From positions 37,565 to 101,564 of the forward strand of contig CAZWWE010000003.1 of NCBI GenBank assembly GCA_964637295.1: a DNA stretch of 64,000 nucleotides, given 5' to 3'. This document shows, in pieces, positions 34,335 through 38,880 of this stretch. Position 1 is the first letter of the stretch, and each line of letters begins with the position of its first letter. Source of the DNA: an uncultured Pseudomonadales bacterium (GTDB lineage: Bacteria > Patescibacteriota > Microgenomatia > UBA1400 > PJMF01). Made by a program: the position numbers and the translations under genes. The notes beneath the pieces are model-generated. The model was not told where the DNA came from and did no database searches. It saw only the letters and a list, made by a program, of their open reading frames with translations.

Positions 34335-35615
34335 ATGTCTAACTCCGTTTTGCAACAGCTGCATTTTTTGATGGTGGGTTTTAATGCCAAAAAAATTCAA
34401 GTTGAATCAGCTCAGCAACTTGGTCTTAAAGTCAGCTTACTAATTTCTCGAGCCAAATATGAACCAGCATTCGAAGCAATGTTTCAGCAGGTTGTAGTGG
34501 TGGATGACATCTATAACTGGCCGCTAGTTGAAAAAGCTCTTCACCAATTTACAAAAATTGATGTGGTTTTGACTAGATCTGAAGACCATATTAATGTAGT
34601 GGGAGCGATCAACCAGCATTTACATTTGGCAGGCATAGATTATCAAACTGCGCGTAATTTTTGCAATAAATACTTGATGAAAGAAAAATGGCTAGCCGCA
34701 GGTGTGCCCTGCGCTCGAGGCATCTGTTTAGATGACCATCAAGATCTTGATTTATTTTTGCAGCAGCATCAATTTCCTTTGATGTTGAAAAAAACTTCCG
34801 CAGCTCATTCAAATTTCGTCATACGAGTGACTTCTCTGGCAGATTTATTGGATAAATGGCAATATTTAAAAAACAATGTTCAAGACGAAGTGGTTTCTAA
34901 AACTATGGCTGGTTTCAAGCAAACAAAACGGGCTTGCCAATTTGTTTTAGAAGAGACGCTGTCTGGTCGCGAATTAACGGTGGATACTTTTGTGCTTAAT
35001 GATCGTTATTTACACACGCCGATTTGCGAGTACGTCATGGCTGATGAGCTAAATGTTGAAGATACTTATTTGCCAATTAGGACGATGCCGATTGTTTTAA
35101 CTCAGGCACAAAGCGATTTGGTTTATCAAGTGGTGGAAAAAGCCTTGAGAGCTTTGGGAGCCAAAAATTGTGTGTGTCACACTGAGGTTTTTTTTGATGA
35201 ACAGAAAAATTATTGTGCAGTCATCGAAACTACAGCCAGAGGTGGTGGTAATCGCGCAGAGATGACTCTGGCAACTACTGGCTTTGATTACAGTTTAGCC
35301 GTTTTTCAAGTTGCTGCTGGCCTTGAGCCCCCATCAATACCCGCCCCACAAAGGGCCATTTCCGTAGTCGAATATTTTGCCAAGCAAAAAGGTTATTTCC
35401 AAGATTTGAACCTAGATTTTTTAAGCCAAAATCCTGCGGTGACCAATATTCAACTCAAATATAAACCTGGTCAATTAGTTGAAAAAGCTAAGTTTGGGGG
35501 AAAACCCATTATTAGTTTTTTTGTCAAGAAAAATACAGCCTTAGAAAGTCAAGCTTTGGCCAAAGAATTATTTAAAAAAATTCAAACTACAATAAAAATC
35601 GATTATCTTGAATGA
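34335..35615 (+). CDS. ATP-grasp family ligase (carboxylate-amine ligase-like)
   Basis: Pre-ATP-grasp domain followed by an ATP-grasp fold (PLMLKKTSAAHSNFVIRV...; ...CHTEVFFDE...IETTARGGG). Confidence 0.6.
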   Translation: MSNSVLQQLHFLMVGFNAKKIQVESAQQLGLKVSLLISRAKYEPAFEAMFQQVVVVDDIYNWPLVEKALHQFTKIDVVLTRSEDHINVVGAINQHLHLAGIDYQTARNFCNKYLMKEKWLAAGVPCARGICLDDHQDLDLFLQQHQFPLMLKKTSAAHSNFVIRVTSLADLLDKWQYLKNNVQDEVVSKTMAGFKQTKRACQFVLEETLSGRELTVDTFVLNDRYLHTPICEYVMADELNVEDTYLPIRTMPIVLTQAQSDLVYQVVEKALRALGAKNCVCHTEVFFDEQKNYCAVIETTARGGGNRAEMTLATTGFDYSLAVFQVAAGLEPPSIPAPQRAISVVEYFAKQKGYFQDLNLDFLSQNPAVTNIQLKYKPGQLVEKAKFGGKPIISFFVKKNTALESQALAKELFKKIQTTIKIDYLE

Positions 35616-36576
35616 TTTTTCGTACTTTACTTTTGTATAAATCAGGATCGGCAGTAAAAATTTTGGGTAAAAGAATTGGCTGGACAATGGCCAGCTTTTC
35701 AACTTTTTTGATATCTTGAACGGCAATTTTACCAAAGTAAAGTTTACTCGGATCAGCATCATTTTTTTGTAAATATTTTAAAATCTCGATAAAGCCTTCA
35801 AAGTAAACTAAATCTTTGCTAAAAGCTCCTTTTTGGCTAGTATCGGTCAAGCCTCTCTTTTTCTTCACCGTCCACCCCCAAGCCTTATTGGGATCTAGCC
35901 AAGCTCGCCAAAGAAAATTGAAAGTGCTCTGAAAATCTTTTCGCCAAGCCACATCATTGGCCAAATAATTGATGGCGCTTTTATAAGCGATACTTTGTTC
36001 TTTGGCGATCATCTCGTGAATAATGGCTAGTCCTTCTTCAGTACGCAGATGATTGTTTAAACCATAGCTTTTCTTTTTTTTATACCAGATTTGCTGTTCA
36101 TAATTATGTTGTCGCAATAAATGAGTATCTATTTCATGTGCCAAGATCCCGAGCATCTCTTCTTGAGTAATTTTGATCGGTAGAGCAATTTTAATTTCCC
36201 TATTTTTTAAATGAACGGCGCAGCGACTGACAAAGTTTGTTGAGAAGATGAGTCTATATTTATTTTCTAAGCCATATTGTTGCAAATGTTTGTCAAAGTA
36301 AGCACTTACCTCCTGCTGACTCAAATATCGAGTAGTGTTTTGAGTTTGTCTAATTTGTTTTTGCCAAGCTGCCTGATATTTTTTAAAAATATAATAAGCC
36401 TTGATTAAATAAGTCAAGCGAGGCTTGCCGTAGGCTAAAAGCTCATTTTTTGCAATTGGTCGCTGATAAACAAATTGTGGATTATATTTGTAATTGGCGG
36501 CAAAAAACTTAGCTTTTTCACTGGCTAAATTAAGAGGCACGAGTTCACTCAGTTTTAACATATGCTTGTCATTCAT
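35587..36576 (-). CDS. DUF1704 (QEGLA-motif) zincin-like metallopeptidase / carboxypeptidase
   Basis: HEIDTH is an HExxH motif and RTEEGLAIIHEM is a QEGLA-like motif, both hallmarks of DUF1704. Confidence 0.6.
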   Translation of the reverse strand: MNDKHMLKLSELVPLNLASEKAKFFAANYKYNPQFVYQRPIAKNELLAYGKPRLTYLIKAYYIFKKYQAAWQKQIRQTQNTTRYLSQQEVSAYFDKHLQQYGLENKYRLIFSTNFVSRCAVHLKNREIKIALPIKITQEEMLGILAHEIDTHLLRQHNYEQQIWYKKKKSYGLNNHLRTEEGLAIIHEMIAKEQSIAYKSAINYLANDVAWRKDFQSTFNFLWRAWLDPNKAWGWTVKKKRGLTDTSQKGAFSKDLVYFEGFIEILKYLQKNDADPSKLYFGKIAVQDIKKVEKLAIVQPILLPKIFTADPDLYKSKVRKIIQDNRFLL

Positions 36577-37855: not shown

Positions 37856-37860
37856 ATGCC

Positions 37861-38880
37861 CTATTCCTCTTCTTGCGAATTTTTATCTTCAACGCCATTT
37901 TTAAATTGATGATTAGCATTGAGCAGATCTTTAAATCTCAGATATTCTAAAAATCTAAGCCCAGTATATTTGCCAATCGCTAGGTTAATCAGGGCGACGC
38001 CCAAAAGAGTTAGCTCTGGTCTTAAAATAACAAATTTTTGAATTGATTCTGAGCCAATTAGCAAAGAACATAAAACGGCAATTAATAGAGTCTCAAAAGT
38101 GATTTGCAAAGCTTCTTTTTGACTATTAAAAAGTTGAGTTTCCATGAAGTTTTCTGTCAATAAAATAATGATTAACAAAGGGAAAATGCTAATATCAATC
38201 ACTAAGTCAAGATTATAAATTGAACCGAGTAATAACAAGGCCAAAATGGCCACTGAAACACTCATCAATAACATGGCTGTTCTAGGTAGAATTGGTAATC
38301 TGAATTTTTTTAGAATTGGACGAGTAAAGAGAGCAGTCATTAAAACCACTAAAAAGACCAAAATACCAGGCAAGATCCCAGTGGAAACAAAAGCCACTGA
38401 TAACACCGCTGGAATATAAATACCAAAACCTTTCAAGCCAATGACGTGGCGGGAGAAAGCCACTAAAGAAGCAATAATTGGAAAAAGCAATAAAATCACA
38501 ATAATATTGGCTGGCATACCGCTAGCAATTGATTTGCGAATCGCTTTTTGTAAAAAATTATGCCAACTAAGTTTGCCAATGGCATGTTCGTCTAAATATG
38601 CTGCAAGAACACTTTTCTTTTGGCCACTAGTTTCAGTGATATCTTGATCAGTTTTTTGTTGTAATTTTTCTACGACTTCTGCTGAAGGCGAAGATAATTT
38701 GGCACTGTCTGTGCTTTCCAAAGCACTACTACTGGCTTCATTTTCCGCCAAGATGCTAGTAGGTTTTACAGTAGTTGGCAGGGCACTTTTTTGCACTTGA
38801 GCCCAGCTGGGTGTGCTACTGAGCTGACCCATGAATAAACATGTAAACAAAACGACAAGTGGGGTGGCAATAATTTTCAT
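37861..38880 (-). CDS. Polytopic membrane protein with an exported Ser-rich N-domain (possible 7TM partner of the ligase module)
   Basis: Signal peptide, a Ser-rich segment, then ~7 hydrophobic helices. It is translationally coupled to the ATP-grasp gene with a 5-nt gap. Confidence 0.45.
   Translation of the reverse strand: MKIIATPLVVLFTCLFMGQLSSTPSWAQVQKSALPTTVKPTSILAENEASSSALESTDSAKLSSPSAEVVEKLQQKTDQDITETSGQKKSVLAAYLDEHAIGKLSWHNFLQKAIRKSIASGMPANIIVILLLFPIIASLVAFSRHVIGLKGFGIYIPAVLSVAFVSTGILPGILVFLVVLMTALFTRPILKKFRLPILPRTAMLLMSVSVAILALLLLGSIYNLDLVIDISIFPLLIIILLTENFMETQLFNSQKEALQITFETLLIAVLCSLLIGSESIQKFVILRPELTLLGVALINLAIGKYTGLRFLEYLRFKDLLNANHQFKNGVEDKNSQEEE

Follow-up and report, generated by a model that had tools for sequence, protein, structure and literature searches.

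What is the role of a bacterial gene cassette that sets a seven-transmembrane (7TM) protein, an ATP-grasp peptide ligase, and a carboxypeptidase of the kind that trims tubulin tails directly one behind another? The question is raised by positions 34335-38880 of a 64,000-nucleotide (nt) stretch of DNA from a Patescibacteria (candidate phyla radiation, CPR) genome, which as a whole we refer to as the window. We find that this locus encodes a conserved ligase/peptidase/7TM system that was previously uncharacterized. We hold with good confidence that its ligase and carboxypeptidase form an antagonistic pair acting on alpha-linked acidic peptides at the 7TM protein. The narrower proposal that the pair would be a membrane-anchored cytoplasmic writer and eraser of alpha-linked glutamate tails, with the C-terminal tail of the 7TM protein as the predicted acceptor, is the reading we prefer, at slightly less than even confidence.

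The three genes of the cassette are co-directional on the minus strand, running from 38880 to 35587 in the order 7TM, ligase, and MATCAP-type peptidase, and are tightly coupled: 5 nt separate the 7TM stop codon from the ligase start, and the ligase and MATCAP genes overlap by 8 nt (Table 1). A further ATP-grasp gene converges on the MATCAP gene with a 29-nt overlap of the 3' ends. A first-pass annotation, made from the letters of the sequence, had described four open reading frames (ORFs) here; all are present with the coordinates, strands, and junctions it gave, and profile searches bear out its family assignments (matches to PF13535, PF08014, PF14397/TIGR02291, and PF14402). The two ATP-grasp proteins are not housekeeping enzymes, as no match reaches the cutoffs for PurK, Ddl, LysX, or GshB in an NCBIfam scan and all fall far below them, and PADLOC returned no defense-system match for the six proteins tested.

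To ask how far this arrangement extends, we searched the GTDB species representatives, a single genome for each species, with a MATCAP-like profile and obtained 80 loci. In 66 of these, tblastn with the window proteins places the 7TM, ligase, and MATCAP genes side by side and in one direction, at MATCAP identities as low as 30%, with the 7TM gene upstream of the ligase gene in every case (66/66). The linkage far exceeds what chance would give, the trio being uninterrupted in nearly all of ~70 Patescibacteria genomes at species level. The remaining 14 mostly have too short an upstream sequence or are exceptions such as a second MATCAP subfamily considered below. Three relatives located separately (L001-L003) show the same gene order at 51%, 46%, and 40% MATCAP identity, and the named homologs belong mostly to Candidatus Pacebacteria or to unclassified Patescibacteria. 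In the clade of the window, the trio lies within a longer syntenic block (UvrA - transglutaminase - UvrC - PF04020 protein - 7TM - ligase - MATCAP), and synteny alone could therefore be lineage inertia.

A second lineage provides independent evidence. In L093 (GCA_040960375.1) and L094 (a Peregrinibacteria metagenome-assembled genome), a single protein of 803 and 789 residues, respectively, is encoded directly after a PKD-7TM gene and contains both an ATPgrasp_ST region (232 and 214 bits) and a MATCAP region (198 and 185 bits). The genes for UvrA, UvrC, the transglutaminase, and the PF04020 protein are all missing from these two neighborhoods, and the named members of the PKD-7TM clade are Peregrinibacteria and Gracilibacteria. 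Because ligase and peptidase are fused in a second lineage with an unrelated neighborhood, we conclude that the two work together. The 7TM gene adjoins the ligase gene in the 66 survey loci and likewise in L088 and L091-L094. An add-and-remove system for C-terminal peptides at a membrane protein, as the first-pass annotation had proposed, remains the best reading of the conserved trio and of the fusion, with the activities themselves taken from homologs.

The PF14397 match of the ligase is full-length (profile positions 4-277 of 278; cutoff 31.4). Its match to TIGR02291 covers ligase residues 5-290 and model positions 8-294 of 317, at 241 bits against an equivalog cutoff of 314.2, which makes it a relative of that family, not an equivalog. 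Nine residues (K76, E135, E136, R156, R170, D249, E262, N264, and R282) are invariant in 72/72 orthologs, and with its ATP-grasp nucleotide- and Mg-binding residues intact, the enzyme is predicted to be active. The ligase is much better conserved than its 7TM and MATCAP partners: among the matches listed, identity across Patescibacteria is 58-100%, and in the L001 genome the ligase is 87% identical to that of the window, compared with 51% for MATCAP. Its AlphaFold2 model has a predicted local distance difference test score of 80.9.

Beyond the TIGR02291 match, the ligase continues for ~135 residues. The first-pass annotation had rightly seen an extra C-terminal domain in this RimK-related ligase, but not its identity as a degenerate retropepsin, and it had also missed the oligo-Glu tail of the 7TM protein. 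In this domain, the consensus derived from 30 ligases ('...ALINTGRFRSAIAS.LA.ELGL...') looks like a retropepsin signature in which Asn stands where the catalytic Asp would be, and in a fold search the domain was assigned the retropepsin fold. A sequence-profile search of the PDB with the domain gave chance matches only, and a Pfam scan of the window ligase found no PF05618 match above the gathering score; single-sequence Pfam scans of the isolated domain gave weak clan-AA matches (PF13975 in 13/23 members, PF13650 in 7/23). The equivalent domain of L088 does match PF05618 (30.4 bits, cutoff 27) and carries DTGAG; hhalign aligns it with the window domain at 93% probability (E 2.6e-7), placing N345 on the catalytic Asp. 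Across 72 species, position 345 is Asn in 66, Asp in 3, Lys in 2, and Ser in 1, and Thr346 and Arg348 are present in 72/72, Arg348 occupying the position of the retropepsin Ala. An insert of ~30-45 residues, present in L088 and L091 at the expected site of the flap and hence probably the flap itself, is missing in the window, L093, and L094. In RloA, the protease of the Pseudomonas aeruginosa rloABC operon, a D48N mutant is catalytically inactive (PMC12239564). Because of the Asn345 substitution, the missing insert, and this precedent, the C-terminal domain of the ligase is very probably a pseudo-protease and would then be a probable peptide-binding or regulatory module.

The third protein is a true homolog of the DUF1704 family (PF08014, since renamed MATCAP), as had been supposed: in addition to its PF08014 match, phmmer aligns it with the structure of human KIAA0895L (7z5g_A; E 8.7e-37, 130 bits) from residue 11 to 326, corresponding to chain residues 6-323 and thus to the full catalytic domain. 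The HEIDTH and TEEGLA motifs noted at first pass are both present, although the metal motif is of the HExxxH type and not HExxH; human MATCAP has HEIGTH, and the motif of MATCAP/TMCP1 is of this same type (PMC10499314). The HExxxH motif is joined by a third ligand Glu in the EEG ('QEGLA') motif; H147, E148, H152, and E181 are conserved in 81/81 MATCAP homologs and E180 in 80/81. Both the ligase and the MATCAP-like protein are devoid of a signal peptide, and we predict the latter to be an active enzyme of the cytoplasm. Members of the TMCP/MATCAP group take off C-terminal Tyr and Glu and make polyglutamate chains shorter (PMC10499314). With 89.5 bits against a cutoff of 338.65, the protein is no equivalog of the QEGLA family TIGR02421. 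Its scores descend from human MATCAP (130 bits, full-length) through Pfam (94, partial) to the proteobacterial QEGLA model (89.5), and the relationship between CPR and eukaryotic MATCAP proteins may deserve a proper phylogeny.

The 7TM protein consists of an N-terminal signal peptide, a ~95-residue low-complexity extracytoplasmic region, seven transmembrane (TM) helices (residues ~124-306), a basic amphipathic helix predicted to be cytoplasmic, and the C-terminal sequence ...NSQEEE. It contains no transglutaminase domain, and residues 1-125 have no Pfam match of any kind. The NCBIfam model of RloB, its Pseudomonas counterpart (NF052267), matches at 67.8 bits against a cutoff of 900 and over model positions 314-507 of 508 only; a full HMMER search returned 1,525 relatives of the 7TM module. 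Because the loops at residues 191-199 (three Lys/Arg) and after TM7 (five Lys/Arg in the C-tail) are rich in positive charge, the positive-inside rule predicts an N-out/C-in topology with the Glu tail in the cytoplasm beside both enzymes. This assignment was made from loop charges and the Pfam 7TM model, the segments of a crude hydropathy plot having overlapped.

The C-terminus of this protein provides a candidate acceptor. Glu-Glu is found at the end of 55/68 7TM orthologs compared with 2/323 other conserved proteins of the same loci (MATCAP, PF04020, transglutaminase, UvrC, and Big-domain proteins and the second ligases), an enrichment with Fisher's p = 9e-52 if kinship is ignored. Terminal Glu is present in 64/68 orthologs, in runs of 1-5, and within the window the 7TM gene is the only one of ~58 likely genes to end in Glu-Glu. 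The residues preceding the run vary among orthologs (SII, SLI, NSQ, ETP, SGL, DQA), which indicates that the run is maintained despite turnover around it. In the PKD-7TM clade, a ...H[AVI]EE(E) terminus occurs in 15/16 members on long contigs. Among the 57 long-form 7TM relatives fetched, ~24 end in EE(E) and the others are basic or otherwise non-acidic; the contigs of three Glu-tailed long forms (P0328, P0307, and P0365) stop directly after the 7TM gene.

Across lineages, the presence of MATCAP appears to track both an acidic 7TM C-terminus and decay of the retropepsin domain, a pattern that is coherent in a small sample. The window clade has MATCAP as a separate gene, an oligo-Glu tail, and NTG without the insert. 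The two fusions combine a Glu-Glu tail with a retropepsin domain that lacks the insert (L093, ...RNIEE and DTSR; L094, ...KHAEE and DPYI). The three loci without MATCAP have other tails: L088 (...VVKG) and L091 (...AEKK) retain DTGAG and the insert, and L092 (...ERAA) has no retropepsin domain.

How these proteins may function together is best approached through their nearest known counterparts, which are rloABC as a characterized system, RimK/RimB as a mechanistic precedent, and eukaryotic MATCAP as a relative of the peptidase. As in the rloABC operon of P. aeruginosa (Lormand et al. 2025, mBio, PMC12239564), a 7TM_transglut gene adjoins that of a RimK-related PF14397/TIGR02291 ATP-grasp, and a polyglutamate-handling peptidase belongs to the same unit; RloA cuts polyglutamate (PMC12239564). 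The differences are considerable. RloA is a separate, secreted, active DTG protease, whereas its counterpart in the window is a cytoplasmic domain at the C-terminus of the ligase and is degenerate, with NTG and without the insert. In RloB, a ~310-residue periplasmic inactive transglutaminase domain stands where the window protein has its ~95-residue low-complexity segment, and RloB probably lacks the oligo-Glu tail, judging from the end of its NCBIfam model. The window adds a MATCAP-type metallocarboxypeptidase, and neither its ligase nor its 7TM protein reaches the cutoff that NCBIfam sets for the corresponding Pseudomonas-type family. Because the equivalog cutoffs for RloB, TIGR02291, and TIGR02421 are not reached, the transglutaminase domain is absent, and the retropepsin domain fails three of four features, we class the system as a variant and not as a member of rloABC.

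Ribosomal protein S6 has a Glu-Glu C-terminus, which RimK extends; RimK makes poly-alpha-Glu, and RimB binds and stimulates RimK and cuts polyglutamate. An active RimBK hybrid, with RimB as its N-terminal part, belongs to the same system (Little et al. 2025, JBC, PMC11957791). The window would share with this system a cytoplasmic ATP-grasp alpha-L-glutamate ligase (here putative) with an antagonistic peptidase, an acceptor with an encoded Glu-Glu end, and the existence of ligase-retropepsin fusions in which the partner may bind and stimulate the ligase as RimB does. However, the window ligase is only distantly RimK-like (PF08443 match to residues 232-270 only; TIGR00768 47 against a cutoff of 143), its retropepsin domain is C-terminal and catalytically degenerate, and in place of S6 and an aspartic protease we propose a membrane protein as acceptor and a metallocarboxypeptidase as eraser.

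The third comparison is with the tubulin tail cycle, in which TTL/TTLL enzymes are opposed by MATCAP (KIAA0895L)/TMCP (PMC10499314; 7z5g). The peptidases are homologous, with the same HExxxH and EEG motifs, and an ATP-grasp writer and MATCAP eraser acting on an acidic C-terminal tail is the logic we propose for the window. Unlike the tubulin cycle, the window has no tubulin and its proposed target is the 7TM protein; its ligase belongs to the RloC/RimK branch (TTL Pfam matches are marginal, E 0.001-0.06); the CPR writer and eraser are coupled in an operon or fused; and the N-terminal microtubule-binding extension of MATCAP is missing. The proteobacterial 'flavohemoglobin expression-modulating QEGLA motif protein' (TIGR02421) belongs to the same PF08014 family and has the same motifs, the window protein not being an equivalog.

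On these precedents, we propose that the ligase would lengthen the cytoplasmic 7TM tail with L-Glu, in the way that RimK acts on the Glu-Glu end of S6. The degenerate retropepsin domain, in which Arg348 is invariant, would no longer cut but may bind the acidic tail and/or activate the ligase, as RimB does for RimK. Starting at the C-terminus, the MATCAP-type enzyme would shorten the tail again, much as MATCAP/TMCP enzymes shorten tubulin tails and polyglutamate chains. The state of the membrane protein would then depend on how long its tail is, and the role of this protein may, by analogy with rloABC, be related to envelope or osmotic stress. In evolutionary terms, a metallocarboxypeptidase would have replaced the ancestral aspartic peptidase of Rim/Rlo-type systems.

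Several observations weigh against this reading. The specificity of the ligase, its acceptor, and the specificity of the MATCAP-like enzyme are all drawn from homologs at 24-35% identity, the tail statistics carry no correction for phylogeny, and the predicted topology of the 7TM protein derives from the positive-inside rule as its single argument. Co-variation beyond the main clade comes from five loci, two with and three without MATCAP. The RloB model ends at residue 321 of the window protein, ~18 residues before the tail, which suggests that Pseudomonas RloB has no such tail; tail modification would therefore not be the ancestral function of 7TM/ligase pairs. In addition, a second CPR MATCAP-like subfamily (L079, L082-L084, and L086; 27-34% identity) is unlinked to any ligase, with neither a ligase nor a 7TM gene within the sequenced flanks examined, and the linkage therefore belongs to one branch and not to all DUF1704 proteins. 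Its neighbors are what we take to be a ~287-residue PD-(D/E)XK-like gene and a convergent ~790-residue PBP1A-like gene, which hints at a different substrate. Finally, the tail codons overlap the ribosome-binding site (RBS) of the ligase gene, so the tail signal may be partly translational. We therefore lower our confidence in modification of the 7TM tail but keep the hypothesis.

The alternative that survives best, although we consider it unlikely, is that free poly-alpha-glutamate or another acidic peptide is made at the membrane, exported or anchored by the 7TM protein, and degraded by MATCAP where surplus or mislocalized; the Glu tail would then serve the pseudo-retropepsin domain as a docking site or primer mimic and would not be the substrate. 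Such a product has a precedent in RimK, which makes free poly-alpha-Glu when stimulated by RimB (PMC11957791), and the shortening of polyglutamate chains by TMCPs (PMC10499314) would suit its disposal. The protease of rloABC resides in the periplasm, and the phenotype of losing the RloA protease is suppressed when RloB or RloC is lost as well, as expected if a toxic product is exported (PMC12239564), and 7TM/ligase pairs without a Glu tail do exist (L088, L091, and L092). However, PF14402 has no known transporter signature, and a cytoplasmic eraser beside the cytoplasmic writer of an export product would be futile unless regulated. Nor does a free peptide by itself explain why the Glu tail is found exactly where a C-terminus-specific carboxypeptidase replaces an endopeptidase-type retropepsin.

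The overlap with the ligase RBS leads to a second alternative, that the tail is a by-product of purine-rich initiation signals and that the enzymes act on a substrate encoded elsewhere, such as S6. The junction in the window reads GAAGAGGAA-TAG-ggcat-ATG; the tail DNA, GAA GAG GAA TAG ggcat ATG, has a Shine-Dalgarno (SD)-like GAGGA within the tail codons, ~9 nt before the start codon of the ligase. The Glu run contains an SD-like core in 31/55 loci with at least two terminal Glu residues, GAG is mildly enriched in the tail (35% compared with 26.5% in the rest of the gene; odds ratio 1.47, p 0.03), and a single terminal Glu is frequent at other coupled junctions (ligase 35/72, UvrC 17/65). Yet 24/55 loci keep at least two Glu residues without an SD core in the run, with, for example, a separate AGGAGG after the stop codon (L003 and L043), all-GAA runs, or gaps of 21-37 nt, and in L094 the 7TM and fusion genes are 94 nt apart. 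Glu-Glu is rare at control junctions (ligase to MATCAP 7/70, UvrC to PF04020 1/64, PF04020 to 7TM 0/65), tail runs reach 4-5 Glu, purine-rich sites in the other frames (Gly, Arg) are never observed, and none of the ~58 likely window genes encodes a protein of S6 size whose C-terminus is acidic. The RBS overlap probably shapes codon choice without accounting for the tail; as the sole origin of the tail it is insufficient, though not negligible, and we regard this alternative as quite improbable.

The C-terminus of the ligase is itself frequently acidic (...RFDE, ...GENE, or ...GDVE in the window and its orthologs). It ends in Glu in the 35/72 orthologs just mentioned and in two acidic residues in 19/72, which could reflect the overlapping MATCAP start or RBS, or a pseudo-substrate or auto-modified tail.

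A third alternative, which we think very unlikely, places the system in the cell envelope: the ligase or ligases would build or edit a peptide on a cell-wall or lipid-linked precursor, variable extra ATP-grasp ligases would add further residues, and MATCAP would trim in the manner of an LD/DD-carboxypeptidase. PF14397 is named 'sugar-transfer associated', rlo mutants have cell-shape and ampicillin phenotypes (PMC12239564), and the MATCAP-less cassettes have suggestive company, with a RimK-type ligase, two Mur ligases, and a glycosyltransferase in L088 and three more ATP-grasps followed by a penicillin-binding protein (PBP) in L091; the ~790-residue neighbor of the unlinked MATCAP subfamily is PBP1A-like by eye. 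The block of the window clade, however, holds no Mur, glycosyltransferase, or PBP genes, only UvrA, UvrC, transglutaminase, and PF04020 neighbors, the MATCAP-family enzymes characterized so far act on protein C-termini (PMC10499314), and the Glu tail is left unexplained. That there is no system at all, only housekeeping genes kept adjacent by a lineage synteny strong enough to include UvrA and UvrC, is effectively refuted by the ligase-MATCAP fusion in a different lineage and neighborhood, with the failure to reach any housekeeping equivalog cutoff (PurK, Ddl, LysX) and the overlapping or 5-nt gene junctions pointing the same way, and we give it almost no credence.

Table 1. Features of the cassette and its surroundings, in window coordinates
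Feature	Positions	Strand	Matches and remarks
L-amino-acid-ligase-type ATP-grasp, 426 aa	34335-35615	+	PF13535 ATP-grasp_4, 44.1 bits (cutoff 27)
MATCAP/DUF1704-type HExxxH metallocarboxypeptidase, 329 aa	35587-36576	-	PF08014, 93.8 bits (cutoff 27)
TEEGLA motif of MATCAP-like protein	36025-36042	-	
HEIDTH motif of MATCAP-like protein	36121-36138	-	
RloC/RimK-related ATP-grasp ligase, 428 aa	36569-37855	-	PF14397 ATPgrasp_ST, 193.9 bits; TIGR02291, 241 bits
Acidic C-terminus of ligase	36569-36580	-	
Retropepsin-fold C-terminal domain of ligase, aa ~320-428	36572-36898	-	RimB/RloA-like, degenerate
NTG replacing retropepsin DTG (N345-T346-G347), followed by Arg348, not Ala	36815-36823	-	
ATP-grasp catalytic module of ligase, aa 1-290	36986-37855	-	PF14397, TIGR02291
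7TM_transglut-family membrane protein, 339 aa	37861-38880	-	PF14402, 102.3 bits (cutoff 25), aa 126-319
Terminal Glu-Glu-Glu codons of 7TM gene (GAA GAG GAA, then TAG)	37864-37872	-	
Small 4-TM protein, holin-superfamily-IV-like, directly upstream of 7TM gene	38915-39349	-	PF04020, 74 bits
UvrA, transglutaminase, UvrC, PF04020 block	39282-45361	-	
Exported transglutaminase	40387-42408		
Six consecutive signal-peptide-bearing ORFs	27055-34295	+	
16S rRNA gene	25092-26440	-	1,349 nt, full Rfam model 1-1533
Group II intron D1-D4 match	24725-24804		37.2 bits (cutoff 35), marginal
179-aa ORF	24269-24808		
tRNA-Ile	23583-23657		

The convergent ATP-grasp at 34335 had been taken as a duplication of the ligase. 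It comes from a different family, its nearest solved structures being the L-amino acid ligases 4wd3 and BacD, and its presence is variable: all NCBIfam matches are far below cutoffs, and the loci with a gene of its type beside MATCAP are the window, L001, L009-L013, L015, and L016, so that it is present only in the nearest subclade (8 survey loci and L001). In eleven other loci, a RimK-type ligase gene comes directly after MATCAP and is read in the same direction; many loci lack an extra ligase. The protein is a lineage-restricted accessory whose membership in the cassette is uncertain, and extra ATP-grasp ligases are, more generally, a recurrent and interchangeable accessory, also found in L088 and L091. 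In these two MATCAP-less loci, the 7TM and ligase-retropepsin genes are followed by a RimK-type ligase, two Mur-ligase-family proteins, and a GT4 glycosyltransferase (L088, positions 4252-11793) or by three more ATP-grasp proteins (L091, 226-7164), additional peptide-bond-forming enzymes whose presence suggests that a longer or mixed peptide is assembled.

The suggestion that the exported transglutaminase is the split, inactive partner of the 7TM protein found no support either. Because the Cys366-His409-Asp426 triad is kept in 61/61 homologs, the protein is not of the inactive kind; by these residues it is an active-type enzyme. Both of its termini carry membrane segments. UvrC and the PF04020 gene lie between it and the cassette, and it is missing from the cassettes of the PKD-7TM lineages and of L092; its association is one of lineage synteny including UvrA and UvrC. 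The PF04020 gene lies upstream of the cassette throughout the Pacebacteria-like clade, and none was called beside the cassettes of L088, L091, L092, L093, and L094; its product is probably a syntenic neighbor and not a core part.

The order UvrA, transglutaminase, UvrC, PF04020 is found upstream of the cassette in most of the ~66 loci, and the stable placement of a surface transglutaminase between uvrA and uvrC is odd. The UvrC ORF of the window (TTG start, 458 residues) overlaps the transglutaminase ORF by 272 nt; because the gene calls of relatives are shorter (376-389 residues), the true start is probably further downstream. Many species-representative records that carry the block go under names such as 'uncultured Pseudomonadales bacterium', 'candidate division TM6', 'Vitreimonas sp.', or 'Methylococcaceae bacterium' (L008, L012, L013, L017-L021, L040, L055, L068, and others). 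Their UvrA proteins are 66-94% identical to that of the window, and the records look mislabeled or mis-binned and give no evidence for the system in Proteobacteria.

On its other side, the cassette adjoins the six signal-peptide-bearing ORFs, three of which were scanned: that at 29833 gave no match, that at 31286 a weak match to the WxL-interacting PF06030, and that at 32265 (676 residues, with hydrophobic segments in the C-terminal half) weak matches to Big_13/Big_7. Homologs of the 676-residue protein occupy the equivalent position in many closer relatives. Further away, the 16S rRNA gene is followed by the marginal intron match, in or near the 179-residue ORF, and by tRNA-Ile; no 23S rRNA gene comes after the tRNA, the next gene being a 787-residue ORF. 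This could be a shortened, unlinked 16S gene with an intron remnant. Unlinked, shortened 16S genes with introns are common in CPR.

In a literature search that did not cover the 2009 survey of Iyer et al., so that a partial prior prediction is possible, we found no bacterial pairing or fusion of an ATP-grasp with MATCAP, no degenerate retropepsin fused C-terminally to a ligase, and no Glu-tailed 7TM partner. To our knowledge, the only characterized relatives of bacterial MATCAP/DUF1704 proteins are the tubulin detyrosinases and deglutamylases described in 2022-2023. The pairing and fusion with an ATP-grasp ligase thus provide a first functional context, and a plausible job, for this bacterial family. 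To 7TM_transglut/RloC-type systems, which have no established substrate or chemistry even in Pseudomonas, the CPR variant offers a candidate in the Glu tail of the 7TM protein, and it provides an example of peptidase displacement, in which the arrival of a metallocarboxypeptidase goes with decay of the resident aspartic peptidase domain to a pseudo-enzyme.

The furthest-reaching version of our proposal is one that we consider less likely than not: that the genome-encoded oligo-Glu 7TM tail is reversibly poly-glutamylated by the neighboring ligase and trimmed by the MATCAP-type enzyme, making this the first bacterial membrane protein with a tail 'code', a prokaryotic counterpart and possible precursor of the TTLL/MATCAP cycle, with single-chain writer-erasers in the PKD-7TM lineage. 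C-terminal poly-alpha-glutamylation is so far known only for S6 (PMC11957791). If the proposal is true, S6 would no longer be the sole bacterial case, the 7TM tail being the second; bacteria would possess a parallel to the writer/eraser principle of the tubulin code; and the compact fusion enzymes could become tools to install or remove polyglutamate tags.

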